This document shows, piece after piece, positions 4,685 through 30,569 of a DNA stretch of 64,000 bases. This DNA comes from Spirochaetia bacterium. Its GTDB lineage: Bacteria; Spirochaetota; Spirochaetia; SZUA-6; Bin103. The notes below the pieces were generated by a model that was given only the letters and a program-made list of their open reading frames with translations, had not been told where the DNA came from and made no database searches. Numbering within the stretch: position 1 is the stretch's first letter; each line of letters opens with the position of its first letter. The translations under genes were made by a program, and so were the position numbers. The stretch spans positions 1,437,730 to 1,501,729 of the forward strand of contig OZ241907.1 in assembly GCA_965203515.1 (NCBI GenBank). The letters are read 5' to 3'.

Positions 4685-5415
4685 CGGCGCAGGCTGGTGC
4701 CCCGCTCCGCGCCGCGTTCGGTCAGGAAGTTCTTCAACTCCCGCTCGCCCTTGCGCAGGCGGCCGAAGTTGAAGTGGTCCTCCAGCAGCCTGACGAACTC
4801 GACCGCCTCGGTCCGTTCCGGCTCGTCCAGCACCTCGTCGCTGGGGTTGAGGATCTCCGATACCAGCGCCTCCAGGTTCTCCGATTCGTAGCGGCGCAGC
4901 GTCTCTTCCACGCGGACCAGCAGCCGGCTGGGCACGAAGGTGATGCGGTCGATGGCGTTCCTGAGCGTCACCCGCTTGCGGGTCGCCGCGTCCGAGGTCA
5001 ACTCCTTCCTGCCGATCGCCAGGTACGCGGCGACGCTGGCGCCCAGCGCGATCGCCAACTCGTCGATCACCGGGATCGGCAGCCCGCCGCGCAGGACGTA
5101 GGCCATCACGAACATCGCCAGCACGAACACCCCGGCCGACGCCAGGAAGCGCGGTATGAACCGGTTCTCCGACAGCCAGCGGCGCACCGCGGCGTCGACC
5201 GTCCGGTACAGCTCGTCGCGGAACATGGTAAGCACTTCGACGCGCGGTTCGGCGCCGAAGCGGCCCTCCACGGTGCGTTCCGCAAGGGTGCCCTCCAGCC
5301 GCTCCACGCCGCGGAACGGATCGAGCAGCAGCGACTCTCCGTCTTTGAGGAGCACGTGAAAGATGTATGCCTTTTCCCTGCCAGCTTCCTCTGCAGCCAT
5401 CTCCTTGTCAGCCAT
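4603..5415 (-). CDS. hypothetical membrane protein (two predicted TM segments), unbiased composition
   Basis: MADKEMAAEEAGREKAYIFHVLLKDGESLLLDPFRG...; no recognisable family. Start is set at the ATG (M24 of the track ORF). Confidence 0.55.
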   Translation of the reverse strand: MADKEMAAEEAGREKAYIFHVLLKDGESLLLDPFRGVERLEGTLAERTVEGRFGAEPRVEVLTMFRDELYRTVDAAVRRWLSENRFIPRFLASAGVFVLAMFVMAYVLRGGLPIPVIDELAIALGASVAAYLAIGRKELTSDAATRKRVTLRNAIDRITFVPSRLLVRVEETLRRYESENLEALVSEILNPSDEVLDEPERTEAVEFVRLLEDHFNFGRLRKGERELKNFLTERGAERGTSLRRWAESQRLDFPLYAVYKRFKRTVERVR

Positions 5416-5496
5416 GGGTACGATCCGCCGCCACCGGCAATATAAGCCGCTCGGCGGCGAATCCGCAAGCGAACCCGCAAGCATCGCGCCCGCGCG

Positions 5497-6624
5497 TCAT
5501 CGCGCCGCCTTGACCCCGCCGCCGCGGCGGACCCGCTCCACCTCCGCGATCACCTGTTCCTGCCGGACCATGGTGGTGTCGCCGGGCGTGGACTGCACCA
5601 GGATGCCGTGCGCGGCGCCCCATTCGACCGCCTGCTGCAGGTCGCGCCCCTGCAGCAGGGCGCTGAGGACGCCGGCGGTGAAGGAATCCCCGCCGCCGGT
5701 GCGGTCGGCGATGTGGACGCGCTCGCGGACCGGCGCCACGTACCAGCGGCGCGCCGCCGTCTCGTACAGCACGGCGCCCCAGCTCACCGTGTCGGCATCG
5801 TGCGCGCCGCGCCACTGCGTGCCGATCAGGCGCAGGCCCGGATAGTCGGCCGCCACCCGTTCGATCGTCGACCGGTAGCGCTCCAGCCACGGTTCGAAGC
5901 GATCGTCGCCGTCCGGGGTTTCGTAGCCCAGGGCGTCGCCGAGGTCCGAGTCGTTGCCGACCAGGAAGTCGATGCTGGGGATCAGCCGCCGGTTGATCCG
6001 GCGGGCGCGTTCCCGGTCGGGCTCCACCTTGGAGCGGTAGTTGAGGTCGGCGGCGACGAACGTGCCGGACGCTCGGGCCGCCTGCGCCGCGGCGATCGCG
6101 GTGTCGGCGGTGCGCGCGCCGATCAGGGTGAAGATGCCGCCGGTGTTGAATACCCGCACGCCGTCCCCGGCGAACAGGCCGTACAGATCGAAGTCGTTCG
6201 GGGTGAGCAGCGACGCCGCGGTGTGCGCGCGGTAGTAGAGCGTTTCGGACGGGAGCACGCCCTTGCCGGCGAAGGTGATCGACATGCCGTTGTGGACCGT
6301 GCCCTTGGCGTCGGTGCTGTGCGCGCCGCCGGAGCCGGCGGTGTCCCACCAGATGATCCGGCCCGGATCGACCCCCAGCTCCGCGAGCTGGTTGACGATG
6401 TTGCGGCCGATGTCGTCGGCCACCAGGGCGGTCAGCACGGCCGCGCGCAGGCCGAACGTAGCGGAGACTCCGCAGGCCACGTTGGTCTCTCCGCCGCCCT
6501 GAAAGACCCGCACCGAGTCGCGTACGCGGGCCAGCGGAACGTCGCGCGGGTCGAGCCGCCAGAGCACTTCGCCCAGCGAGACGAGGTCATGGCGGCAACG
6601 GTCGGCGGCCGGCAGATCGATCAC
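5497..6624 (-). CDS. PfkB-family carbohydrate kinase (2-dehydro-3-deoxygluconokinase-like)
   Basis: Ribokinase-superfamily motifs, including the C-terminal DRTGGGDSFTAGVL anion hole (GG...D.F). Confidence 0.8.
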   Translation of the reverse strand: MIDLPAADRCRHDLVSLGEVLWRLDPRDVPLARVRDSVRVFQGGGETNVACGVSATFGLRAAVLTALVADDIGRNIVNQLAELGVDPGRIIWWDTAGSGGAHSTDAKGTVHNGMSITFAGKGVLPSETLYYRAHTAASLLTPNDFDLYGLFAGDGVRVFNTGGIFTLIGARTADTAIAAAQAARASGTFVAADLNYRSKVEPDRERARRINRRLIPSIDFLVGNDSDLGDALGYETPDGDDRFEPWLERYRSTIERVAADYPGLRLIGTQWRGAHDADTVSWGAVLYETAARRWYVAPVRERVHIADRTGGGDSFTAGVLSALLQGRDLQQAVEWGAAHGILVQSTPGDTTMVRQEQVIAEVERVRRGGGVKAAR

Positions 6625-18172: not shown

Positions 18173-19507
18173 TCAGTAATACTCGAGGTAGCGCTCGATC
18201 TCCCAGTCGGAGACGTGCCGCTGGTACTCGATCCATTCCATCTCCTTGACGGTGATGAACTCCCGCACCACGGCGCCGAGCCGGTCGCCGAACAGCGGGT
18301 CGGCGGCCAGCGCGTCGAGCGCCTCGCGCAGCGTCTGCGGCAGCGTGCCGATGCCGATCTCCCGGAGCTGCTCCGGCGTGTAGTCGTACAGGTTGAGATT
18401 GTGCGGATCGCCGGGGTCGAGCCGGCGGTCCACGCCGTCGAGCCCGGCCGCCAGCATCGCGGCGGTGGCCAGGTAGGGGTTGCAGCTCGAATCGCTGAGG
18501 CGCAGCTCCAGGTGCCCGCGCGGCACCCGGACCATGGCGGTCCGGTTGTTGTCGCCGTAGGCGACGTGCGCGGGCGCCCAGGTGGCGCCGGACAGGGCGC
18601 GGCCGACCACCAGACGCTTGTAGGAGTTGACCGACGGCGCGACCAGGGCGGTCAGCGCCGGCGCGTGGCGCAGCAGGCCGCCCAGGAAGTGGTAGGCGAG
18701 CTCCGACAGTCCCAGTCCGCGGCGGTCGGAATCGTCCTCGAACAACGACGTTCCCTGCGCGTCGGCGATCGACAGATGGACGTGCATGCCGCTGCCGGTG
18801 CGCGCCGACATCGGCTTGGGCATGAACGAGCAGATCATGCCGAGGTCGCGGGCGATCTCGCCGGCGGCCATGCGGAAGAAGACGTAACGGTCGGCCGAGG
18901 TGAGCGCGTCGGTGTAGGTGTAGTTGATCTCGAACTGGCCGTTGGCGTCCTCGTGGTCGACCTGATAGACGTCGAAGCCGACCTCCTGCAGCGACGCGAC
19001 CAGCTTCTCGATGAAGTGCCGGCTGCGCGACAGGCCCTTGTAGTCGTAGCACGGCTTGTCGAGCAGGTCGGTGCGGTCGGCGGGATGGATGCTGCCGTCA
19101 TCGTCTCGGCGCAGCAGCATGAACTCCGGCTCCAGTCCCGTGTTGAGCGTCCAGCCGCGGTCGCCGAGCGCGCGGAGTTGCTCCTTGAGCACGTGGCGGG
19201 TGTCGTACGGCCACGGCTGCCCGTCGACCCGCCCGTCGCAGACGATGCGGGCGTAGCCCGGCTGCCACGGCACCGGCGACAGCGTGGCCAGATCGCCCAC
19301 CGCCATGAAGTCCGGGTCGTGCGGTTGCTGGCCCATGCCCCACACCGCGAAGCCGGCGAACCCGGCGCCGGCATCGAGCACGTCGTCGAAGTGCGCCGCC
19401 GGCACCGCCTTGGTCTTGGCGACGCCGTGCAGGTCGACGAACTGAGCGAGCACGAACTTGATGTCGTGCCGTCTGAGCAGTTGGTGCGCGTCCTCGCGTG
19501 TCATCTC
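18173..19507 (-). CDS. glutamine-synthetase-family protein, 444 aa (gamma-glutamylmethylamide synthetase GmaS-like)
   Basis: GS catalytic-domain motifs ([41 protein letters not shown]). The 444-aa length and the context with mgs/mgd-like genes fit GmaS. The ATG overlaps the soxG stop (ATGA). Confidence 0.7.
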
Positions 19508-20247
19508 TCTCCTTCGTCCTGCCGTTCCGTCGGCCGCGCCGGCAGCAGCGCCGCGGCGGCCAGCTCCCCTACCGGGCCGCCGCCGCACTCCCGCACGATC
19601 GTCAGCAGCTCGTCCCACAGCCAGGGGCCGTAGCTCGGCGCGGCCCACAGATGGTAAACCGGGACGGGCGGCGCGTCTTCCTCCCGCATCGCCTCCCCGC
19701 GGTCGGCCAGGACCGCGCAGGAGACCAGCGCCACCCGCGTCATCACGAAGCGGCCGGCGGCGCCGCGAAAATCATACGCGCAGGTCTGCGCCAACACATC
19801 CGGCGCGCGCCGGCCGCAGAGCAGCAGCGCCGCATCCTCCCGCCGCACCGGCCAACAGGCGGCCGGCGGCGCCGCAGCGAGCGCCGCCGCCACCGCCGCG
19901 GCGCCGGCTCCCTCCAGGAACAGCTCGCCTTGGCCCACCCGCACGGCGAGCGTGCCGTCGACCGCGCGCGTCCAGCCGTACCGCTCGGTCGGGACCGCCA
20001 CCCCCTGCGTCCGCGCCCACGCGACCGCGCCCGGCCCCGTCAGGCCGATACGCGGCAGCGCGCCGCGATCGGCCAACCCCAGCACCGGCGCGGTCGCCGC
20101 CTCCGCCGCCGCATCCCCGAAGTGGAGCGCGCGCAACGCGCCGTCGCGCTCTTCCCAGGCCGCTCCGAGCCGCTCCAGACAGGCGTGCACGGCGCTAACG
20201 CGCGCGCTGTAGCCCGCGCTATGGCGCGGCGCCGGCGGCGGGGTCAC
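19501..20247 (-). CDS. soxG: sarcosine oxidase gamma-subunit family protein (MgdD/SoxG-like)
   Basis: Position after soxA, size, and a weak SoxG-family pattern. ATGA overlap with the soxA stop. Confidence 0.55.
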
Positions 20248-23222
20248 GAGCGCAGCCTCGCCCCGTCCGGATCGAAGAACGGCGTCGCCGCCACCCGCGC
20301 CGCGACGATCGCGCCGCCGTCGCCCTTGATCCGCAGCGCGGCTCCCACCCGCGCCGCCGCCGGCGGTACGTAGGCCAGCCCGATCGTGCGCCCGACCGCG
20401 CCGCTGCGGCCGACGCTGGTGACCCGGCCGGCGATGCCGCCGCCGGCGTCGACGATCAGGTGGTTTTCACGCGGCGCCGGCGCGGATGCGGGCAGCTCGA
20501 ATCCGACCAGCCGGCGGCGCGGCTCCTTGCCGGCGATGATCTGCAGGCTGCGCTTGCCCACGAAGAACCGCTTGTCGAGCTTCACCGCCCAGCCGAGTTC
20601 GGCCTCGAACGGATCGGTGAGACCGTCGGTATCCTGACTGACGATCAGGTGCCCCTTTTCCAGGCGGAGCAGACGCTGCGCCTCCACGCCGAACGGGACG
20701 ATGCCGTGCTCCCGGCCGGCGCGCAGCAGCTCGTCCCAGACGCCGGCGGCGTAGCCGGCAGGGACGTGCACCTCGTAGCCCAGCTCCCCCACGAACCCGA
20801 CCCGCGACACGCGCGCCGGCGCGCCGGCCACCGTCCCTTCGCGGATGCCCAGGTACGGGAACGCGTCCGGCGACAGGTCGATGTCGGTGAGCCCGGCCAG
20901 CACGTGCCGGGCATACGGACCGGCGAGGTTGCAGGCGCCGTAGCTGCCGGTCGCGTTGACCAGCGTGACGTCGAGCCGCCAGACCGCCGCCCAGCGCTGC
21001 AGCTCGCGGTAGACCTGATCCGCCCCGGAGGAGGTGGTCGACACGTAGAAGCTGTCGGCGTCGAGGCGGGCCACCACGCCGTCGTCGATCACCACGCCGG
21101 ACTCGTCGCACATCACCCCGTAGCGGGTCATGCCGATCCGCAACCGCGCGAAGCGGCCGGTGTATACGCGCTCCAGGAAGCGGACGGCGTCCGTGCCGCT
21201 CACCTCCAGCTTGCCGAGCGTACCGACGTCGATCAGCCCGACGCGGGAGCGCACGTCGCGGGCTTCCGCGTCGATGCAGCCGGCGCGATCCAGACCCTCC
21301 CGGGGATACCAGGCCGGCCGCAGCCAGGCGCCGGCGTGCGTCATCCGCGCTCCCAGCCGCTCGTGCCGGTCGTGGACCGGCGTGCGCTGCACCGGCGTGA
21401 AGCCGCGGCCGGCCAGATGCGCCATCGGCACCGGCGCGGTGAACGGCCGCGCGGTGGTGAGCCGGGCGCCGGCGAGCGGCCGGCCGGTCAGGCGGGCCAG
21501 CACGCGCGCCGCGTTGACGTTGGCGTGCTGCCCCTGGCTCGGCCCCATGCCGACCGTGGCGTACCGCTTGAGGAGCTCCGGGTGATCGAAGCCCTCCTGC
21601 ACCGCGTGGGCCAGATCGTCGACGGTCACGTCCTCGTCCAGGTCGACGAACGCCTTGGCGTCCGCCTTGGCGTCGGGTTCCGCAAAGATCGGATACGGGT
21701 GGCCCGGCTCCGCTGGCTCCACCGGCTCCGGGGCCGGCGGTCCGCTCGCCCCCTCGGCTCCGGCGCCGGCCCCGGCGGACGCTCTGCCCACGTGCGCCGC
21801 GGCCGCCCTGCCCGCGCGACGGCCGTCGGCCGCCGCCGCGACGACGCCGGTCACGCTGCCCGCCGCGAACACGCCGGCCGGCAGCTCGTCCGGCACGTGC
21901 CGATGGAGCGTTTCGTCATACGCCATGGCAGCGCCGGCCTGCCGCAGCAGCCCGTCGCGCGGAGCGGCGCCGACGCAGACGATTATGCCGTCGCACGGTA
22001 TGGTCCGCGCCGGGCCGGTCGGCCGACCGGCCGCGTCGAGCGCCCGGATGCGGGCCGCCCGCACGCCGGCGTTCCCCGGCAGCGGCAGCGCCTCCACCAC
22101 CGCGTGCCCGCGGTAGACCGGCGCCCCTGCCGGTTCAGTCGCTCCCGCCGCCTCGGTCGCTCCCGCCGCCTCGGTCGCCCCCGCCACGCCGCTCGCGCCG
22201 CCGGCCGGCGCTCCGTCGCCAGGAGCCTCCGCGCGCAGGTCGACCACGGCGGCGACGCCGATGCCACGCTCCGCCATGGCGTCCGCCAGGCGGTAGCCGC
22301 CGCTCCCGGCGGTCAGCACCAGCGGCCGGTCCGCCGGGCGGACCGCGTAGCGCTCCATCAGCCGCCGCGCCGCTTCGCCCAGCATGACGCCCGGCAGGTC
22401 GTTGTTGCCGAACACCGCCGGCTGGTCCTGGCAGCCGGCGGTGACCACCAGCGACCGGGCGCGCACCTTGGTGAGCCGCCGCGCGTCGACGACCGCCGCC
22501 CACAGGTCGGCGTAGACGCCGACGCAGGCGGCGCCAAAGCGGCGCTCCACCCCGCTGCCGACCGCCTCGGTCACGGAACCGTCGAGCCGTCCGCTCGACT
22601 CGACCAGCATGACCGCCGCCCCCTGCTCGGCGGCGGCGTTGGCCGCCGCCACCCCCGCCGGCCCGGCGCCGACCACCAGCACGTCGCAGAACGCGTAATC
22701 CTTGGGCGACGGCGGGCGGCGCCCGCCGCCGCGACGCCCGTCGCCGCGACGCCCGTCGCCGGGCACGCGGCCCAGGCCGGCCAGCGCGCGCAGCCCCCGC
22801 TCGTAGAGCGGGAACAGCCAGCGCGGGGTGTGCATGGCCTTGTAGTAGAAGCCGACCGGCGTGAAGGCCGACAGGCGGCCGAGCACCGCCAACAGGTCGC
22901 GCCGCACGCCGCCCAGCGTGTTGACCGCGCGCAGGTCAAGGCCGTCAGTCAACGGCAGCTCGTCGCCGCGCAGGTTGACGCCCGCCGGCCCCTCCAGCAT
23001 CACGTTGGCGTCCGCGCCGGTCAGGCTGTAGACGCCGCGCGGCCGGTGATACTTGAAGCTGCGGCCGAGCACCTGCACGCCGGCCGCCAGCAGCGCGGAG
23101 CTCACCGTGTCGCCATGCAGGCCGCGGCAGTCCCGCCCCTCGAAGCGAAACGCGATCGGCCGCGACCGGTCGATCCATTCGCCCGGCCGCGGCGGCAGGC
23201 GCCGGCCGGCCGGCGCGCTCAC
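20244..23222 (-). CDS. soxA: sarcosine oxidase alpha-subunit family protein (MgdC/SoxA-like; aminomethyltransferase folate-binding C-terminus)
   Basis: GRSFKYHRPRG, FAD/NAD Rossmann motif (DVLVVGAGPAGVAAA) and GcvT-like C-terminal domains. The GTG start overlaps the soxD stop (GTGA). Confidence 0.85.
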   Translation of the reverse strand: MSAPAGRRLPPRPGEWIDRSRPIAFRFEGRDCRGLHGDTVSSALLAAGVQVLGRSFKYHRPRGVYSLTGADANVMLEGPAGVNLRGDELPLTDGLDLRAVNTLGGVRRDLLAVLGRLSAFTPVGFYYKAMHTPRWLFPLYERGLRALAGLGRVPGDGRRGDGRRGGGRRPPSPKDYAFCDVLVVGAGPAGVAAANAAAEQGAAVMLVESSGRLDGSVTEAVGSGVERRFGAACVGVYADLWAAVVDARRLTKVRARSLVVTAGCQDQPAVFGNNDLPGVMLGEAARRLMERYAVRPADRPLVLTAGSGGYRLADAMAERGIGVAAVVDLRAEAPGDGAPAGGASGVAGATEAAGATEAAGATEPAGAPVYRGHAVVEALPLPGNAGVRAARIRALDAAGRPTGPARTIPCDGIIVCVGAAPRDGLLRQAGAAMAYDETLHRHVPDELPAGVFAAGSVTGVVAAAADGRRAGRAAAAHVGRASAGAGAGAEGASGPPAPEPVEPAEPGHPYPIFAEPDAKADAKAFVDLDEDVTVDDLAHAVQEGFDHPELLKRYATVGMGPSQGQHANVNAARVLARLTGRPLAGARLTTARPFTAPVPMAHLAGRGFTPVQRTPVHDRHERLGARMTHAGAWLRPAWYPREGLDRAGCIDAEARDVRSRVGLIDVGTLGKLEVSGTDAVRFLERVYTGRFARLRIGMTRYGVMCDESGVVIDDGVVARLDADSFYVSTTSSGADQVYRELQRWAAVWRLDVTLVNATGSYGACNLAGPYARHVLAGLTDIDLSPDAFPYLGIREGTVAGAPARVSRVGFVGELGYEVHVPAGYAAGVWDELLRAGREHGIVPFGVEAQRLLRLEKGHLIVSQDTDGLTDPFEAELGWAVKLDKRFFVGKRSLQIIAGKEPRRRLVGFELPASAPAPRENHLIVDAGGGIAGRVTSVGRSGAVGRTIGLAYVPPAAARVGAALRIKGDGGAIVAARVAATPFFDPDGARLRS

Positions 23223-23476
23223 GGCAGGCGGTCCGGCAGATAGGTGCGCACCACCCGGTCCGCGCCGGTGTCGCGCTCGGCGATGAACCAGGTGCCGCTC
23301 GGCGCGTGATACCACCACTCGCGCCGCACCGCAGCCGCGCCCGCGCGGTCGAAGACGTAGGACGCCCAGACCTCGTCGGAGACCGCGTCCGGGTCCGGCT
23401 GCGGGCGGTACTCGCCCCCGTAGTCGAACTCCTGCAGCGGCCGTTCGCCGTTCACCGGGCAGCGCAGCAGCTTCAT
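23219..23476 (-). CDS. soxD: sarcosine oxidase delta-subunit family protein (MgdB/SoxD-like)
   Basis: MKLLRCPVNGERPLQEFDYGGE matches the SoxD N-terminus (zinc-binding motif). Confidence 0.8.
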   Translation of the reverse strand: MKLLRCPVNGERPLQEFDYGGEYRPQPDPDAVSDEVWASYVFDRAGAAAVRREWWYHAPSGTWFIAERDTGADRVVRTYLPDRLP

Positions 23477-23540
23477 CTCGGTGCGCGACGATGCGCCACA
23501 CCGGCCATGCGCGGCAAGGGTGCGGGCAGAGGGCGGGAAC
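23477..23540. repeat. conserved approx. 50-bp sox 5' leader (copy 1, upstream of soxD); second copy lies upstream of soxB at 27386-27442
   Basis: ggtgcgc..ccggccatgcgcggcaagggtgcgggcagagggcgg is present at both places immediately 5' of the soxD and soxB ATGs. Confidence 0.7.
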
Positions 23541-24147
23541 CGGCGTCCCCGACCGGGTTGCCCCGACGATCACGGCGGAAGGCTTTGATGCCATCCTCGC
23601 CACGGCGTGCAAGTCCAGGAAAACCGGCCGCGGCGTGGAGTCCCCGGCGCGCGCCCAAGCCCGCGGACGGGTCGATCGCGCGATCGCGGCGCTCCTGTTT
23701 CAGGCCGGCCTGCGGAGAAGCGAGGCCGCCGCTCTCACCTGGGACGACGTGCACCGAGCGAACGACGGCGTCGGGGTGTTGGTCTGCGTATCCCGTTCAA
23801 AGACCGATCAGGAAGGCGCCTCCGCCGACACGCGGTATCTCAAGGACGGCGCCGCCCGCGCCGTTTGGGAACTCCGGCCGGCCGGCCCGCCAGCGGGGGC
23901 TCGCGTGCTCGGCGGCCTGAATGGCGCGTCGGTCGCCCGCCGCTTCGGAGCAGCCGCCCGGGCGGCCGGAGTGGTCGGTCGAATCACCGGTCACTCCGGC
24001 CGCATTGGCCTCGCTTCGGAACTCACGCGCCGCGGCGCCACCACCACGGAGACGATGCTCGCCGGCGGATGGAAGACGGCCCGTATGGTCGCCCACTACT
24101 CGGCAGGCGCCACCGCCGAACGGGGCGCCGTCGCCAAGTACCTGTGA
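23541..24147 (+). pseudogene. tyrosine recombinase/integrase fragment (catalytic C-terminal domain only)
   Basis: LLFQAGLRRSEAAALTWDDV (Arg), GHSGRIGLASELTRRG (H..R) and MVAHYS (Tyr) are present, but there is no N-terminal core-binding domain. The 5' part of track ORF 23491..24147 is antisense to the sox leader. Confidence 0.6.
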
Positions 24148-24197
24148 GCGATGAAGAACCAAGACGGTCCGGAAACCTGGTGACTGCTTGACTGAGC

Positions 24198-25055
24198 TCA
24201 GCCATCCGTCGTCGCCTCAGGGTCGTCATCCCACGGCGAGGAGCTTCTCATATAGTAGAACTTCCCGTTTTGCATCGGGCCCCTCGTAGCGCCGTCGGTC
24301 CGAGACCGGTGCACGTAACGGCACCGCCGGCACGCAGACCGGTACTCCGCCCCATCGTGCCCGAGGTCGGACGCAGGCAGGGTCGAACGCCATTCCGGCG
24401 ACCACTCGTGCGGCTCACCGTCCGGGCAAAGGTCATCCGTGGCATCCATCCACGGCGGCCAGGCCACGTCACGGGGTACCGTGAGTTCCGGTTCCTGAGG
24501 CGGCGCATCGTCCTCCACGGCGTCCATGCCTTCTCCGTCCAGATCGCCCTTGACACCGCCGTAGGGTTGCGCTTCGTCGACGAACCAGAAGGCACCGTCG
24601 GTACGGTCCCCATACCTCCACTCACGGGTCTTCCCTATCGCCACGAGCACCACGCGCTGCACGTTGTCGGAGTCTCCTTCCAGAAACACCGCTTCGCGCA
24701 ACGCCTCCCCGCGGCTTGGTGCCAACACGTACTCCGCGCCTTGCGTTTCGCGGAACACCTCGACGCTCAGTTCGTAGGGGCGTAGATGGTCCTCATCGTC
24801 CTCGTACAGAGACGACGGTTCCACATCCGGCTTGACGTACGGGACGCCGCCGAACCATAGCGACGGATCGACCGTGCGGCCGTCGTCGCTCAACAACTCC
24901 ACGTAATGGAGGTTGTCGGCGTCGCGGCTTGCCTTGATGGCGGCGGCGAACGCGTCGCGCCGGGTCTGCGCTTCAACGGTCACGCGCGTCTGCGCGCCGC
25001 CGAACTCCCGAAGGAGCATCTCGTAACGTCGCAGAGCGGCTCCGGCCGTGGTCAT
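24198..25055 (-). CDS. uncharacterised acidic protein with C-terminal C-x(n)-CRRC motif, paralog A of 3
   Basis: AGGAGG SD plus ATG. About 90% identical to copy C. No family recognised (MTTAGAALRRYEMLLREFGG...CPDGEPHEW...CRRCRYVH...DDDPEATTDG). Confidence 0.7.
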   Translation of the reverse strand: MTTAGAALRRYEMLLREFGGAQTRVTVEAQTRRDAFAAAIKASRDADNLHYVELLSDDGRTVDPSLWFGGVPYVKPDVEPSSLYEDDEDHLRPYELSVEVFRETQGAEYVLAPSRGEALREAVFLEGDSDNVQRVVLVAIGKTREWRYGDRTDGAFWFVDEAQPYGGVKGDLDGEGMDAVEDDAPPQEPELTVPRDVAWPPWMDATDDLCPDGEPHEWSPEWRSTLPASDLGHDGAEYRSACRRCRYVHRSRTDGATRGPMQNGKFYYMRSSSPWDDDPEATTDG

Positions 25056-25094
25056 GGTTGGCCTCCTCTTGACAGGGTGACTGCTTGACTGGGC

Positions 25095-26066
25095 TCAGCC
25101 ATCCGTCGTCGCCTCAGGGTCGTCATCCCACGGCTCAGGGTCGTCCTCCCACGGGGTGTCGCATATGAAGTAGCTTTCGCGGTTCCATTCCGAACGTTTG
25201 GCTCCCTCGACTCGAGACCGGTGCACGTAACGGCAACGCCGGCACGCAGACCGGTACTCCGCCCCATCGTGCCCGAGTTCGGACGCGGGCAGGGTCGAAC
25301 GCCATTCCGGCGACCACTCGTGCGGCTCACCGTCAGGACAAAGGTCCTCCGTGGCATCCATCCACGGCGGCCAGACCACGTCACGGGGTACCGTGAGTTC
25401 CGGTTCCTGAGGCGGCGCATCGTCCTCCACGGCGTCCATGCCTTCTCCGTGCAGGTCGCCCATGACCCCGCCGTACCGTCGGGCTTCGTCGACGAACCAG
25501 TAGTCGCCGCTATCGAGGCGCGTCTTGCCGATCGCCACCAGCACGATCCGCAGGACGTTGTCGGAGTCTCCTTCCAGAAACACTGCTTCGCGCAGCGCTT
25601 CCGCGCGGCTCGGCGCCCACAAGTACACAGAGCCTTCGCTGCCGCCGAACACCTCGACGCTCAGTTCGTAGGGGCGTAGATGGTCCTCATTGCCTTCGTA
25701 CAGAGGCGACGGTTCCACATCCGGCTTGACGTACGGGACGCCGCCGAACCATAGCGACGGATCGACCGTGCGGCCGTCGTCGCTCAACAACTCCACGTAA
25801 TAGAGGTTGTCGGCGTCGCGGCTTGCCTTGATGGCGGCGGCGAACGCGTCGCGGCGGGTCTGCGCTTCAACCGTCACGCGCGTTTGCAAGCCGCCGAATT
25901 CACGAAGGAGCATCTCGTAACGCCGCATAGCGGCTCCGGCCGCGGTCATGAAGGCGCCGTCGTCATCGGGCGAGCCGTCGCCCGGCTGCTGAGCGGCCCA
26001 GGTGGCGAGCGGCGCCAGCAGGAGCGCGGCGCAGAGCGCGAATCGCAGGCTGCGGTTGGTTATCAT
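25095..26066 (-). CDS. paralog B of the same acidic protein family, with an added N-terminal signal peptide (MITNRSLRFALCAALLLAPLATWAAQQ) and an internal 13-aa deletion
   Basis: Start ATG with GAGGAGG upstream. In tandem with copy A, separated by 39 bp. Confidence 0.7.
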   Translation of the reverse strand: MITNRSLRFALCAALLLAPLATWAAQQPGDGSPDDDGAFMTAAGAAMRRYEMLLREFGGLQTRVTVEAQTRRDAFAAAIKASRDADNLYYVELLSDDGRTVDPSLWFGGVPYVKPDVEPSPLYEGNEDHLRPYELSVEVFGGSEGSVYLWAPSRAEALREAVFLEGDSDNVLRIVLVAIGKTRLDSGDYWFVDEARRYGGVMGDLHGEGMDAVEDDAPPQEPELTVPRDVVWPPWMDATEDLCPDGEPHEWSPEWRSTLPASELGHDGAEYRSACRRCRYVHRSRVEGAKRSEWNRESYFICDTPWEDDPEPWDDDPEATTDG

Positions 26067-26143
26067 GGCGCGCGGGATTGGCCTCCTCGACAGGATGTTT
26101 GCGCGAGCAAAGGCAGCAGTCATCGACGCGGTCCGGCGCCATC

Positions 26144-27385
26144 TCAGTGGCCGACCGCGGCCGCGCCCTTTTCGCCGACCAGATCGTACTCCGCGAACCG
26201 GGACAGGCGGAACGGCTCGATCAGCGGATGCGGCCGGCCGTGCGCGACCGTCCAGGCCATGGTGCTGCCGCTGGCCGGCGTCGCCTTGAAGCCCCAGGTC
26301 CCCCAGCCGGCGTCCAGGAAGAAGCCCTCCACCGGCGTCAGCCCCATGATCGGCGAGAAGTCCGGGGTCACGTCGGCCAGCCCCGCCCACTGGCGCAGCA
26401 CCTTCACCTCGCCCAGATGCGGGAAGACCGCCAGCACGTGCGCGGACAGGCCCTCGACGAACTCCAGCGTCGATCGGGTCGAGTGGACCTCGTACGGGTC
26501 GAGCGACGCCCCCATCACCATCTCCCCGCGCGATGACTGGCTGACGTAGATGTGAAACGAACCGGAGACCACGATCACGTGCAGCCACGGCTTCAGCGGC
26601 TCGGTCACGCACGCCTGCAGCGGATGGATCACCAGCGGCGTGCGGATGCCGGCCATCTCCGTGATCGCCGGCGTGTAGCCGGCGACGGCGCTCACCACCC
26701 GGTCGGTCTCGATCACGCCCCGATCGGTCTCCACGCCGGTGACGCGCCCGCCGGCCAGCCGCAGCCCGGTCACCGGCGTATGCTGATGTATCTCCACGCC
26801 GAGCCGGTCGGCGCCGCGGGCATAGGCCCAGGCGACCGCATCGTGCCGGGCGATCGCCCCCGGCGGATGCCACAGCGCGCCCAGCACCGGCAGGTCGTGG
26901 CCGCAGTCCAGGTCGAGCAGCGGGCAGGAGCGGGCGATGAAGTCCCGGCCGACCAGCTCGCTGCGCACGCCCAGGTGCTTGTTGACCTCCGCCCGCCAGC
27001 GCATGGTGCGCACCGCCGAGTCGGTATGGGCCAGCGTGAAGTGGCCCCGCTCGCTGTACAGCAGGTTGTAGTCGAGGTCGGCGGAGAGGCGCCGGAAGAG
27101 CTGCACGCTCTCCTCGTAGAAGTTGACCCCTTCCGGGGTCAGGTAGTTGGAACGGATGATGGCGGTGTTGCGCCCGGTGCCGCCGGCGCCGACGTAGCTC
27201 CGCTCCAGCACGGCGACGTCGCGCAGGCCGTGATCGCGCGCCAGGTAGTAGGCGCAGGCGAGCCCGTGGCCGCCGCCGCCGATCACCACGGCGTCGTAGC
27301 GGCGCTTGAGGCGCGGCGGCGCCCGGAACATGCGCGGTTCGCGGTAGGTCCGCCGCAGGGCGAACCGGATCAGTCGATGCGGCAC
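26144..27385 (-). CDS. soxB: sarcosine oxidase beta-subunit family protein (MgdA/SoxB-like FAD oxidoreductase)
   Basis: YDAVVIGGGGHGLACAYYLA (GxGxxG) and DAO-family motifs throughout. Separated from soxDAG by the insertion. Confidence 0.85.
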   Translation of the reverse strand: MPHRLIRFALRRTYREPRMFRAPPRLKRRYDAVVIGGGGHGLACAYYLARDHGLRDVAVLERSYVGAGGTGRNTAIIRSNYLTPEGVNFYEESVQLFRRLSADLDYNLLYSERGHFTLAHTDSAVRTMRWRAEVNKHLGVRSELVGRDFIARSCPLLDLDCGHDLPVLGALWHPPGAIARHDAVAWAYARGADRLGVEIHQHTPVTGLRLAGGRVTGVETDRGVIETDRVVSAVAGYTPAITEMAGIRTPLVIHPLQACVTEPLKPWLHVIVVSGSFHIYVSQSSRGEMVMGASLDPYEVHSTRSTLEFVEGLSAHVLAVFPHLGEVKVLRQWAGLADVTPDFSPIMGLTPVEGFFLDAGWGTWGFKATPASGSTMAWTVAHGRPHPLIEPFRLSRFAEYDLVGEKGAAAVGH

Positions 27386-27407
27386 GGTTCGGCGGCACGG
27401 TGCGCCA

Positions 27408-27540
27408 TTCCGGCCATGCGCGGCAAGGGTGCGGGCAGAGGGCGGCGGATGGAAGACGGCCCGTATGGTCGCCCACTACTCGGCAGGGGCGACCGCCGAA
27501 CGGGGCGCCGTCGCCAAGTACCTGTGAGCGATGAAGAACC
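27408..27540 (+). repeat. internally deleted second copy of the integrase remnant (first 35 bp joined to last approx. 95 bp) plus conserved linker
   Basis: 27408-27442 equals 23505-23539, then jumps to the equivalent of 24064-24160. Same linker ...gtgagcgatgaagaacca.gacggtccggaaac..ggtgactgcttgactgagctcagcc as at 24144-24200. Confidence 0.8.
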
Positions 27541-27577
27541 ATGACGGTCCGGAAACCCGGTGACTGCTTGACTGAGC

Positions 27578-28459
27578 TCAGCCATCCGTTGTCGCCGCCT
27601 CAGGGTCGTCATCCCACGGCTCAGGGTCGTCATCCCACGGCGAGGAGCTTCTCATATAGTAGAACTTCCCGTTTTGCATCGGGCCCCTCGTAGCGCCGTC
27701 GGTCCGAGACCGGTGCACGTAACGGCACCGCCGGCACGCAGACCGGTACTCCGCCCCATCGTGCCCGAGTTCGGACGCAGGCAGGATCGAACGCCATTCC
27801 GGCGACCACTCGTGCGGCTCACCGTCCGGGCAAAGGTCATCCGTGGCATCCATCCACGGCGGCCAGGCCACGTCACGGGGTACCGTGAGTTCCGGTTCCT
27901 GAGGCGGCGCATCGTCCTCCACGGCGTCCATGCCTTCTCCGTGCAGGTCGCCCATGACCCCGCCGTAGGGTTGCGCTTCGTCGACGAACCAGAAGGCACC
28001 GTCGGTACGGTCCCCATACCTCCACTCACGGGTCTTCCCTATCGCCACGAGCACCACGCGCTGCACGTTGTCGGAGGCTCCTTCCAGAAACACTGTTTCC
28101 CGCAACGCCTCCCCGCGGCTTGGCGCCAACACGTACTCCCCGCCTTCGACGCCGCCGAACACCTCGACGCTCAGGTCGTAGGGGCGTAGATGGTCCTCAT
28201 CGCCTTCGTACAGAGGCGACGGCTCCGTATCCGGCTTGACGTACGGGACGCCGCCGAACCGTAGCGACGGATCGACCGTGCGGCCGTCGTCGCTCAACAA
28301 CTCCACGTAATAGAGGTTGTCGGCGTCGCGGCTTGCCTTGATGGCGGCGGCGAACGCGTCGCGGCGGGTCTGCGCTTCAACGGTCACGCGCGTCTGCAGG
28401 CCGCCGAATTCCCGAAGGAGCATCTCGTAACGCCGCAGAGCGGCGCCGGCCGTGGTCAT
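27578..28459 (-). CDS. paralog C of the acidic protein family
   Basis: GAGGAGG SD plus ATG (MTTAGAALRRYEML). Differs from A in a short variable patch and an extended acidic tail (DDDPEPWDDDPEAATTDG). Confidence 0.7.
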   Translation of the reverse strand: MTTAGAALRRYEMLLREFGGLQTRVTVEAQTRRDAFAAAIKASRDADNLYYVELLSDDGRTVDPSLRFGGVPYVKPDTEPSPLYEGDEDHLRPYDLSVEVFGGVEGGEYVLAPSRGEALRETVFLEGASDNVQRVVLVAIGKTREWRYGDRTDGAFWFVDEAQPYGGVMGDLHGEGMDAVEDDAPPQEPELTVPRDVAWPPWMDATDDLCPDGEPHEWSPEWRSILPASELGHDGAEYRSACRRCRYVHRSRTDGATRGPMQNGKFYYMRSSSPWDDDPEPWDDDPEAATTDG

Positions 28460-28701
28460 GGTTGGCCTCCTCGACAGGATGTTCGCGCGAGCATAGCAGC
28501 AAACCGAGTCAAGCACATCACCGGTTCTGGCGTTGGTCGCGTCGCTCGATCAATCGCATCCACCGTATCTCCGTACGTGCGGCGGGCAACTGATCGGCGG
28601 ACTCGTGTGCCCGCCGCCACCCGGAAGGAGACCGCGCGGTCGTGAACCAGGCTGTTGCGCACGTGTCGGCTTTGGCTTTGCGACGGCGCGTCTTTTATTC
28701 G

Positions 28702-29046
28702 TCAGGTTGTAGCCACGTGATCTGTACTGATCCATGAAGTGCTGCTCCAAATTTTGGCTTCCTGATAAGCCGTTCCCGAGCCTGCCGGGACGTTGCCGGA
28801 GTAGTATCTCCGCCACAGCACGGTAGCCTGCTGTTCCACCCAGCGCGTACGCCTCCGGGGTAGCGCCTGCTCATGACGGCGCCGAATCTGCGATTCCCTG
28901 CCAGGCTGCTCTGCCGACGTCTGTTCGTGTTCAGGTTCTCCGTTCTTCCTGCGGTTTCTGATCGATGCCGCTATCCCTGCGCCAACCAACACGAGCAAAC
29001 CGGTGCTGGCAACCACTACAAGCACCGTAACGAGATGGTCAGCCAT
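28702..29046 (-). CDS. possible small membrane protein in a low-GC spacer (weak)
   Basis: MADHLVTVLVVVASTGLLVLVGAGIAASIRNRRKNG...; the region is markedly AT-richer than its surroundings. Confidence 0.25.
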   Translation of the reverse strand: MADHLVTVLVVVASTGLLVLVGAGIAASIRNRRKNGEPEHEQTSAEQPGRESQIRRRHEQALPRRRTRWVEQQATVLWRRYYSGNVPAGSGTAYQEAKIWSSTSWISTDHVATT

Positions 29047-29142
29047 ATTCGCGATCCTCCTCATGGTTCCAGGACATACTACCAACGCTGAATAGCGCCG
29101 TCCGGCCAGCGCCAGCGCCTCCACGGTTTCCGGGCGACGAAC

Positions 29143-29171
29143 TTGACTCAACTACTTTCCATGGTTATACT
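29143..29171 (+). promoter_or_regulatory. consensus-like sigma70 promoter, leaderless transcript for DUF222/HNH copy 1
   Basis: TTGACT (29143-29148), 17-nt spacer, TATACT (29166-29171). The ATG at 29178 is only 6 nt after the -10. Confidence 0.55.
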
Positions 29172-29177
29172 TATTCC

Positions 29178-30569
29178 ATGAACGGCACTCGTTCCGACAC
29201 CGCCGACGCAGCCATCACGACCACCGTTTCAGCTCTCTCCGACGACCGCCTGCTGGAGCGGACCAAGGAACTGTCCGGCATCGAACACCAGCTCGAAGTC
29301 GTCGTCATCGACCACCTGCGCGAGATAGATAAGCGCCACCTGTACCTGCGCCGCGGGTTCTCAAGCCTCTTCGATTACGCGGTCCGCGAGCTCGGATACA
29401 GCGACGCCGCCGCTTGGCGGCGCCTCAAGGCGATGCGCCTCTGCGCCGACATCGACGGCGTGCGCGAGCGCCTGCAGGACGGCTCGATGACCCTGAACGC
29501 CGCCGCGCAGTTGCAGAACGCCTTTGATCGGCAGGAGCGCAACAGGGATCGCGCGGCGCGCAGCGCGCCGGGCGAGGACGGGTTCGGGGCCGCCGCGCGG
29601 TCGCAGGACGGCTCGGCGCCGGGGCCGACTCAGCCGGCGGAACGGAAGCCGGCGCCGGTGCTGGACCGGTCGGCGCGGCGGGCGCTGGTGGAGCAGGCGG
29701 CCGGCAAGAGCAGCCGGCAGGTGATGCAGTTGCTGGCCGAGGTGGACCCGGAGATGACGGCGCCGCCGGATCGGGTACGCCCGCTCGGCGCCGGGCGCTG
29801 GGAGCTCAAGGCGGTCATCGACGATGAGTGCCGGCGCGGTTTGGAGCTGCTCAAGGGCCTCCTGTCCCACGTCGATCCACACATGACGTTGGGTCAGCTC
29901 ATGGGGCGGCTGGTGCGGGAAGGGCTCGACCGCCACGACCCGGCCCGTCCGCCGCGCGGGAGCCGCACCGGCTCACACGCCGCAGGCGCCGAGCAGACTT
30001 CGGCGGCGAAGACGCAGGCGGCCAGCTCGGCCCAGGCGGCCGGGCAGCCGGGGAACGAAGCGGCTTCGCCGTTGAAGGCGTACCTCGGCCCGGAACACCC
30101 GGACACTTCGGCAGCGAAGCCGGCGGGCGATACCACTTCGGCGCCGAAGCAGGATGCCAACGCGGACAGCGCCGCTCCTTCGGCGGCGAAGGTATCGGCC
30201 CAGGCGACGGGGCAGCCGGGAGACGAAGCCGCTTCGCGGCTGCAGGCGGACCGCTGCCCGGACACTTCGGCGCCGAAGACGCGGTGCCTCGGCCGGCAGG
30301 CTGCGGCGTGTGCAGAGCGGGCGGCTGGCGCGACCGGCCGCTCCATCCCGGCGGCGGTCAAGCGCGCGGTCTGGCGGCGCGACCGGGGCCGCTGCAGCTA
30401 CGTCGACCGCACCAGCGGGCGCTGCTGCGGCTCTCAACACCTGCTGCAGATCGATCACGTCGTGCCGTACGCCCAGGGCGGCGCCGCCGAGCCGAACAAT
30501 CTCCGACTGCTGTGCGCCGCGCATCACCGCCACCGCCACGCAGGCACCGGATTCGGCCGCCCCGGCTGA
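29178..30569 (+). CDS. DUF222 + HNH endonuclease domain protein (REP13E12-like), copy 1
   Basis: N-terminal DUF222-like region and C-terminal HNH (CSYVDRTSGRCCGSQHLLQIDHVVPYAQGGAAEPNNLRLLCAAHHRHRH). The central part is low-complexity with TSAAK/ASPLKA repeats. About 90% identical to 60565..62001. Confidence 0.8.
   Translation: MNGTRSDTADAAITTTVSALSDDRLLERTKELSGIEHQLEVVVIDHLREIDKRHLYLRRGFSSLFDYAVRELGYSDAAAWRRLKAMRLCADIDGVRERLQDGSMTLNAAAQLQNAFDRQERNRDRAARSAPGEDGFGAAARSQDGSAPGPTQPAERKPAPVLDRSARRALVEQAAGKSSRQVMQLLAEVDPEMTAPPDRVRPLGAGRWELKAVIDDECRRGLELLKGLLSHVDPHMTLGQLMGRLVREGLDRHDPARPPRGSRTGSHAAGAEQTSAAKTQAASSAQAAGQPGNEAASPLKAYLGPEHPDTSAAKPAGDTTSAPKQDANADSAAPSAAKVSAQATGQPGDEAASRLQADRCPDTSAPKTRCLGRQAAACAERAAGATGRSIPAAVKRAVWRRDRGRCSYVDRTSGRCCGSQHLLQIDHVVPYAQGGAAEPNNLRLLCAAHHRHRHAGTGFGRPG

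Follow-up and report, generated by a model that had tools for sequence, protein, structure and literature searches.

A probable decayed integrative element between soxB and soxD of a Spirochaetia operon, and the acidic protein genes that it left behind

How did 2.67 kb of foreign DNA come to separate soxB from soxD in an otherwise contiguous bacterial operon, and what has become of the genes that it brought along? The locus lies in a 64,000-nucleotide (nt) stretch of contig OZ241907.1 (positions 1,437,730 to 1,501,729, assembly GCA_965203515.1) from a Spirochaetia bacterium, a stretch that we call the window. An earlier note on this DNA had described an integrase remnant and three related acidic protein genes, here paralogs A, B and C, which split the operon and are accompanied by direct repeats around soxB. 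We propose that a small integrative element entered the operon, was duplicated together with soxB and then decayed, leaving cargo genes that are maintained by purifying selection and reshuffled by gene conversion. This explanation as a whole we consider probable, and the genomic history within it, namely insertion, duplication, decay and gene conversion, we hold with high confidence.

The block between soxB and soxD is recognised as foreign to the operon because three outgroup contigs, with soxB 75-76% identical to that of the window, have the two genes 1 nt (L013 and L014) or 31 nt (L015) apart, an uninterrupted arrangement that agrees with the insertion proposed in the earlier note. In L015, soxD is followed by soxA, soxG, a glnA-like gene and GATase, GXGXG and Glu_synthase genes, and the same set of neighbours follows soxG in L001, a near-twin of the window with sox genes 99% identical. 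The G+C content (GC) is 0.71-0.78 in the sox genes and their surroundings, and 0.63-0.66 in the paralogs and the segment upstream of C. Among database clusters, just two exceed 80% identity to the soxB protein, the next standing at 76%. Judged by these comparisons, the block is a lineage-specific insertion. The insertion is old rather than recent, because four related genomes have the layout, one of them in part: L001, L018 and L009 carry paralog, soxB, paralog(s), integrase and soxD in this order, with the repeats included in all three, and L002 (soxB 95% identical) carries soxB, extra cargo, two paralogs, integrase and soxD.

The features of the locus, of which the order and strands around soxB and soxD were recovered from open reading frames (ORFs), Pfam and NCBIfam as the earlier note had given them, are as follows.

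19501-20247, minus strand: soxG/mgdD-like gamma subunit (weak TIGR01375 match; 97% identical to the L001 gene after soxA)
20244-23216, minus strand: soxA/mgdC-like alpha subunit (Pfam GCV_T, SO_alpha_A3, Fer2_4 and GCV_T_C)
23219-23476, minus strand: soxD/mgdB-like delta subunit (PF04267 SoxD, E 8.5e-25)
23483-23536, no strand: leader copy 1, 54 nt, directly upstream of soxD and overlapping the artificial 5′ end of the integrase ORF (repeat family D6)
23491-24147, plus strand: remnant of a Cre-like tyrosine recombinase, 5′-truncated, 218 codons (PF00589), convergent with paralog A
24148-24197, no strand: spacer of 50 nt between convergent stop codons (repeat families D3 and D4)
24198-25055, minus strand: paralog A, 285 amino acids (aa), isoelectric point (pI) 4.5, long (L-type) central module (from ORF and alignments)
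25095-26066, minus strand: paralog B, 323 aa, short (S-type) central module and distinct C-terminal block (from ORF and alignments)
25950-26066, minus strand: predicted signal-peptide extension of paralog B, 39 aa (Sec-type by its n/h/c-region layout)
26078-26118, no strand: paralog leader with Shine-Dalgarno site, 41 nt, upstream of B; it is the 3′ end of segment X
26144-27385, minus strand: soxB/mgdA-like beta subunit, 413 aa (PF01266; TIGR01373 at 463.6 bits, below the cutoff of 529.45)
27392-27445, no strand: leader copy 2, 54 nt, directly upstream of soxB (repeat family D6)
27443-27527, plus strand: integrase scrap, the last 27 codons and stop (repeat family D3, 97%; integrase residues 192-218 100% identical by tblastn)
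27578-28459, minus strand: paralog C, 293 aa, pI 4.4, L-type central module and duplicated PWDDDPE tail (from ORF and alignments)
28460-28923, minus strand: segment X, a conserved region upstream of the paralog, homologous to L009 3369-3838 and L002 9523-10000

Every relevant gene is on the minus strand except the recombinase ORF, which is on the plus strand. In the direction of transcription the order is segment X, C, spacer, integrase scrap (antisense), leader, soxB, paralog leader, B, A, spacer, integrase ORF (antisense), leader and soxD-soxA-soxG. All four subunit genes of a soxBDAG or mgdABCD operon (beta, delta, alpha and gamma) are present, the soxG match being weak, and the soxB length of 413 aa is that of most of its homologues. 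As in such operons, soxD, soxA and soxG are translationally coupled, the start of soxA overlapping the stop of soxD, and the start of soxG that of soxA, by 4 nt each. The operon is of the N-methylglutamate-dehydrogenase/sarcosine-oxidase type, and the glnA-like (gmaS-type) and GATase_6/7 genes that follow it in L001 and L015, again as in known operons of this kind, suggest the N-methylglutamate pathway as its substrate route. Unlike those operons, soxB is here split from soxD and flanked by direct repeats of 1.1-1.6 kb.

Comparison of the window with itself bore out the claim that soxB, and B with it, lies between long direct repeats, and the repeat matches in the block are far beyond chance. 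Positions 24063-25079 and 27443-28481 are 93.7% identical over 1041 aligned nt. Paralogs A and B (24179-25056 and 25076-25950) share 85.8%, B and C (25076-25950 and 27559-28460) share 87.7%, and A and C share 95.9% of their nucleotides. The sox leader of about 50 bp reported before both units measures 54 nt and is 91% identical between its copies (23483-23536 and 27392-27445), and the paralog leader recurs with 92.7% identity (26078-26118 and 28462-28501). The second integrase fragment is, as described, an internally deleted duplicate of the first, lacking 23537-24062, with the deletion junction at a GGCGG microhomology. The linker given as about 95 bp is indeed repeated, but the true spacer from integrase stop to paralog stop is 50 nt, the remainder being the 3′ end of the integrase; this spacer recurs after each paralog, and the palindrome CTGAGCTCAG overlaps the paralog stop codon. 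Of the strong Shine-Dalgarno sites attributed to both tandem copies, that of A stands (GGAGG 6 nt before the ATG, as in C), but that of B is weaker, its signal-peptide ATG lying 15 nt away. A search around the paralogs revealed no lox-like or attC-like inverted repeats, no att sites or element ends were identified, a promoter and terminator scan returned nothing in the block above shuffled expectation, and Rfam matched no RNA family anywhere in the window.

The recombinase fragment matches PF00589 with an E value of 9.6e-12. Its residues ~28-218 are real recombinase sequence, and its first ~27 codons are leader sequence. A phmmer alignment to Cre residues 168-344 shows that GLRRSE (R), SRSKT (K), GHSGRIG (H..R), GGW (W) and AHY (Y) are kept, so that all six catalytic residues are conserved; Cre is also the best structural relative, and the XerA/integron NCBIfam match reaches just 19 bits. 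The ORF in the window begins at approximately the equivalent of Cre residue 135. Both L009 and L002 encode ~130 more N-terminal residues, including ...NTRRQYRYGWSQW...AVAAYL..., and the window and L001 are without ~560 nt of the integrase 5′ part, which encodes the N-terminal core-binding (SAM-like) domain. In tyrosine recombinases this domain is needed for recognition of the DNA site. The gene is apparently full-length in L009, frameshifted in L002, truncated in the window and L001, and absent in L003-L006. Accordingly, the description of the fragment as a catalytic-domain-only remnant holds. Judged from these alignments, the element appears to be immobile now. L003 most likely lost its integrase, since the more distant L002 still carries one.

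Other relatives retain less of the locus. In L003-L006 a single paralog ends 30 nt from the start of soxD, with no integrase between them and no soxB within 10 kb; PIN and AbiEii genes and a helicase/methyltransferase defence cluster adjoin it on the upstream side. In L007 an intact paralog (279 aa) is flanked by nothing but scraps, comprising 30 codons from the end of soxB, 16 from the end of the integrase and 29 from soxA. The paralog is therefore retained independently of the sox genes. Around the paralogs of L003 (325-9857), L004 (4226-7535) and L007 (2399-3053) we noted an SNF2 helicase with an Eco57I/N6_Mtase enzyme, AbiEii, PIN and MazE/Fic genes; such defence and toxin-antitoxin neighbours suggest that the locus is a variable region resembling a defence island.

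The repeats are best explained by a tandem segmental duplication that included soxB, rather than by two separate insertions, because an integrase of full length, 3′ fragments of soxB and another part of the integrase still occur among relatives. In L009, a 309-nt soxB 3′ fragment lies upstream of the first paralog, and between this paralog and soxB there is a different internal piece of the integrase, equivalent to window 23880-24015. L002 has two extra soxB 3′ fragments, and such fragments stand upstream of paralogs in L009, L002 and L007. We also observed that the soxB/soxD gap of L002 (4930-10000) holds ~5 kb of additional genes that could not be annotated, among them an ORF made of ~120-nt repeats (4964-5818, minus strand), together with two ~1.8-kb blocks that each end in a soxB 3′ fragment. 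These extra genes have no informative family match. The site is a hotspot of recurrent recombination.

We propose the following sequence of events. The ancestor of a narrow clade of GC-rich genomes would have received, between soxB (mgdA) and soxD (mgdB), a small integrative element that carried a Cre-like tyrosine recombinase, segment X and one gene of the acidic family, which would have given the order soxB, X, paralog, integrase, leader, soxD. A unit of ~3 kb, from soxB through X, cargo and integrase to the leader, would then have been duplicated in tandem, and one further duplication of the cargo gene would have brought the copies to three. Deletions would have followed independently in each lineage. 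In the window, the upstream copy of soxB would have been lost in this way, together with the larger part of the second integrase, the DNA-binding N-terminal domain of the first and most of the X that preceded B. What is left would be an immobile block with three intact cargo genes in the orientation of the operon, each with its own ribosome-binding site and maintained by purifying selection, which are probably transcribed together with the operon. The locus shares with decayed integrative elements of the Cre/phage type the kept catalytic domain, the lower GC, the interruption of a conserved operon and the graded decay among relatives. The element departs from them in being very small, comprising integrase, X and a single cargo gene, and in having an operon instead of a tRNA gene as its site.

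In L009 and L002, segment X separates a paralog from soxB or from a 3′ fragment of soxB. In the window it is found upstream of C, and only its two ends remain between soxB and B. A small ORF of ~185 aa with a hydrophobic N-terminus was noted in it (L009 3159-3838; L002 9312-10000; window 28460-28923). L009 alone has this X ORF intact; in L002 it is frameshifted, and in the window it is truncated as well as frameshifted. Between L009 and L002 its ratio of nonsynonymous to synonymous divergence (dN/dS) is 0.22-0.65 on few sites, and it has no Pfam or NCBIfam match. A possible assignment as a GIY-YIG nuclease, from the motif VVYAF...YVGKA, was dropped as unsupported by Pfam, NCBIfam and PDB searches. 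The paralog may originally have had the X ORF as its partner gene.

What do the cargo genes encode? The three paralogs are full ORFs with a pI of 4.4-4.7 and a net charge of about -28, and A is identical in alignment to the database protein P0005. Searches with Pfam, NCBIfam, PHROG and PADLOC models brought no match, PDB sequences searched by profile returned noise only, and tblastn against PLSDB and INPHARED found no match. Close homologues amount to 27 proteins, all at least 70% identical, among 5.8 billion clusters, and a profile search of 1.84 billion representative proteins added ~30 remote matches restricted to profile positions 8-170; none in either group is annotated. Scans of JGI metagenomes and IMG/VR revealed no relatives of the family or of the remote N-domain group. 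The view that the family is undescribed thus survived these searches, none of which assigned it to a known housekeeping family.

The remote N-domain homologues are mostly stand-alone proteins of 160-200 aa that end in YGGVT.DL. We looked at the contexts of four of them (L010, L012, L016 and L017). That of L010 is plasmid-like, with resolvase, ParA, HigB, ParE and D5_N primase genes, and that of L012 contains many transposases and an integrase. A DsbA gene adjoins the homologue on two unrelated contigs (L012 1781-2290 and L017 503-1229), a PhyH gene lies near the homologue in L016 (1240-2049), and in L007 (292-1134) a close paralog follows a PhyH gene; these neighbours may be a coincidence or a functional hint.

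AlphaFold2 (AF2), run on a mixed alignment, modelled the N-domain with a pLDDT of 80 and a pTM of 0.78 as two beta-beta-alpha-beta units (residues 9-57 and 92-141), which are also related in sequence (BLASTP E 6e-5). The closest structural neighbours of the model are eL20/LX and PaaB, with Z at most 6.6. Each repeat superposes on their beta-beta-alpha-beta fold, and eukaryotic eL20 is likewise a tandem of two units; the fold is small and generic, and uninformative on function. After an acidic linker, ~55 residues are nearly invariant in 28 sequences. The earlier note had pointed to a Cys pair, and conserved cysteines are indeed present, but the invariant set is larger, with three Cys and two His (C210, H216, H233, C242 and C245). 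This Cys/His C-domain is probably a metal site that binds zinc, as its residue pattern would indicate. The protein ends in an acidic tail of one or two PW(D/E)DDPE units. The combination of tandem beta-beta-alpha-beta N-domain, invariant Cys/His C-domain and acidic tail is that of an undescribed protein family.

Next we consider how the copies vary. Between the window and L001, the flanking genes have a synonymous divergence (dS) of 0.005-0.033 (0.017-0.033 for soxB, soxD, soxA and the integrase) and a nonsynonymous divergence (dN) of 0-0.006. For paralogs at the same position, dS is 0.136-0.148 and dN is 0.050-0.065. The excess falls within the middle third of each copy; the gene ends and all spacers are 98-100% identical. 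The centre of A in the window is that of B in L001 (97-98%), and the centre of B in the window is shared at 100% identity with L001 A, L001 C and L009 A. The central modules at positions C, B and A are L, S and L in the window, and S, L and S in L001, and the C-terminal block tracks the position of the gene rather than its central module. Furthermore, a homoplasy test gave 0.370 observed vs 0.541 +/- 0.009 permuted (p < 0.001), and 54% of the informative site pairs failed the four-gamete test.

In the 28-sequence alignment, variation is concentrated in a few patches, among them those quoted in the earlier note: the hairpin of residues 101-112, a loop at 144-156 that is long or short, the linker and residues 256-272. 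Each of these blocks occurs mostly in two forms, with further variants in the hairpin patch. The dN/dS of the paralogs is 0.25-0.57 over all pairs; by region it is 0.14-0.64, highest in the hairpin and the linker, and positive selection was found in no paralog region (none above 0.64). All copies are under purifying selection, with dN/dS of 0.3-0.5, and are retained as protein-coding genes. The term "diversifying" used for this family, if understood as positive selection, does not hold; the variation reflects alternative modules that are swapped by recombination, that is, by gene conversion.

Copy B differs in its N-terminus. The extension of 39 residues has a basic n-region, a hydrophobic core of 16 residues and an A-x-A-like site, and on this predicted Sec-type signal peptide B would be exported. 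The extension is kept in L001 and L018 with 1 nt difference and occurs in four database proteins. The copy with the signal peptide is missing from L002, L003 and L009. The statement that B had acquired a signal peptide and lost 13 aa was correct for the former, but the losses are 6 aa in the centre and 2 aa in the tail.

Several points weigh against the proposed explanation. The tandem-duplication history is a parsimony reading of five loci rather than a dated phylogeny, and two independent site-specific insertions of paralog, integrase and leader, just upstream of two start codons, would be a less favoured but strictly conceivable alternative. The six catalytic residues of the recombinase, and its dN/dS of 0.10-0.35 against relatives, are unexpected for a long-dead pseudogene, a point that small counts and the GC bias of the genome qualify. 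The elevated dS of the paralogs could in part reflect import from other strains instead of exchange within the genome. Because no promoter or terminator was detected, co-transcription of the cargo genes with the operon is a point that we infer.

Our working guess on function, which we offer tentatively and would not press, is that the paralog is a non-enzymatic binding protein of mobile-element origin that meets its partner through the second-repeat hairpin and loop 144-156. The conserved C-domain would supply a constant function, and the second-repeat hairpin and loop specificity. The paralogs matched no known immunity, anti-restriction or defence family, and their fold matches were weak and generic. 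The most attractive rival, which we nevertheless judge rather unlikely, makes the paralogs orphan immunity proteins that neutralise incoming or self toxins by tight binding, with divergent copies, one of them exported, broadening the protection. The rAID (recombinase-associated acquired interbacterial defence) clusters of Bacteroidales are defined by a tyrosine recombinase followed by two or more short genes in one orientation, between which intergenic motifs are conserved (PMC12247911). The block has a tyrosine recombinase beside co-oriented genes with repeated spacers, the genes measuring 285-323 codons against 100-300 codons in rAID clusters, and like them it holds divergent copies of one tandem-domain family, a two-domain build also seen in dual-SUKH orphan immunity genes (PMC12247911). 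The PIN, AbiEii, and SNF2 helicase and methyltransferase neighbours in L003, the MazE/Fic neighbours in L007, and the decayed X ORF directly upstream of the paralog, which could be a former partner, would fit as well. Set against this, all members of the array belong to a single family, which matches neither SUKH nor any other immunity family; the recombinase is downstream, convergent and truncated instead of upstream of the array; the intergenic motifs are explained by segmental duplication; and there is no positive selection. The phylum is also different, and the genome GC-rich. No toxin domain or toxin remnant was recognised at any locus examined, the X ORF with its lack of family matches and its dN/dS on few sites included. 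Were the X ORF that is intact only in L009 the matching toxin, the pair would constitute a new toxin/immunity family. It is unlikely, though conceivable, that the paralogs constitute a self-contained module-exchange system, in which L and S modules, linkers and tails move between cytoplasmic and exported copies and re-target the protein of either compartment. Both L and S modules, plus alternative linkers and tails, are present in every multi-copy genome examined. If true, such a system could provide toxin immunity or, in a spirochaete-like lineage of the environment, an exported protein that varies.

The remaining rivals appear weaker still. An anti-defence protein or DNA mimic left by the mobile element, acting through an acidic surface that resembles DNA or otherwise inhibits a defence enzyme of the host, is improbable: this reading draws on the acidity (pI 4.4-4.7, net charge about -28), and remote N-domain homologues do occur on contigs with plasmid and transposon genes, but PADLOC, PHROGs, BFVD, INPHARED and PLSDB gave no match, neither sequence nor fold places the paralogs in a known DNA-mimic family (ArdA, Ocr and similar), an exported copy makes little sense, and the gene has stayed under purifying selection long after the death of the element, even where the sox genes are destroyed (L007). 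In the vls and tprK loci of spirochaetes, one expression site receives segments from silent donor cassettes by non-reciprocal exchange, which yields mosaic alleles. The locus resembles these in its segmental mosaic exchange between neighbouring copies, with alleles that differ between very close strains (flanking dS ~0.02), and one clade member (L002) is labelled Spirochaetia. A small analogue, in which B is exported and obtains its central module from A and C, could also draw on the conserved signal peptide of B and on the L, S or mixed central modules of exported-type proteins in different strains (P0008, P0014, P0019, P0020 and B of the window). We consider it quite improbable, as A and C are complete, have better Shine-Dalgarno spacing than B and are under purifying selection, unlike silent cassettes; all three copies are translatable and two of the three products lack an export signal; the mostly two forms per block, few at most, generate little diversity; and the signal-peptide copy is missing in three relatives. 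If the paralog served the Mgd/Sox enzyme as an accessory subunit or regulator specific to this lineage, and were not mobile cargo, this would fit its position next to sox genes or their fragments in every clade member examined, on the operon strand and, in L003-L006, 30 nt upstream of soxD. Such a role is very improbable because the paralog is missing from outgroup operons of the same gene order and persists whole in L007 despite the reduction of soxB and soxA to fragments there; its lower GC, the recombinase linkage and the mobile-element contexts of remote homologues argue in the same direction. Lastly, an active integron- or shufflon-type system in which the recombinase moves or reshuffles the paralogs would account for the conserved catalytic residues and for the spacer with its short palindrome after each paralog. 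It is scarcely credible, because the enzyme is truncated, its N-terminal core-binding domain being deleted in the window. Furthermore, the attC-type inverted repeats and divergent IntI of integron or CALIN arrays are lacking and the recombinase is convergent with A, no lox-like repeats were found, the exchanged segments lie inside ORFs as homologous gene conversion predicts, and L003-L006 keep the paralog without an integrase between it and soxD.

Under the preferred history of insertion, duplication and decay, the locus would show stepwise how a tiny integrative element lodges in a conserved catabolic operon, dies, and leaves cargo to be kept, amplified and recombined by the host. Most of the intermediate states survive in related genomes, the integrase being full-length, frameshifted, truncated or deleted, and soxB duplicated, fragmented or lost. 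With long direct repeats around soxB, the pathway is predicted to be unstable in this clade, which agrees with the lack of soxB at the locus in some relatives and with fragmentary sox genes in others. The event itself would be of a known kind, here well preserved, and of interest for now as an oddity of genome evolution and not as a new mechanism; what is new is the protein family, which, with rare distant relatives, some beside plasmid or transposon genes, is a candidate conflict or accessory gene.

Two further observations concern variability nearby. The soxA gene contains low-complexity Gly/Ala/Arg-rich inserts, GATEAAGATEAAGATEPAG and GDGRRGDGRRGGGRR, within window 21700-22800; its product measures 990-998 aa among relatives, with extra alignment columns relative to L002. 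Beyond segment X, a gene for a 463-aa HNH endonuclease (29178-30569, plus strand; PF01844) has an internal direct repeat of 168 nt (30027-30094 and 30195-30262). L001 is without one of these repeat units and without window 29003-29512, so that the HNH gene varies between near-identical strains.

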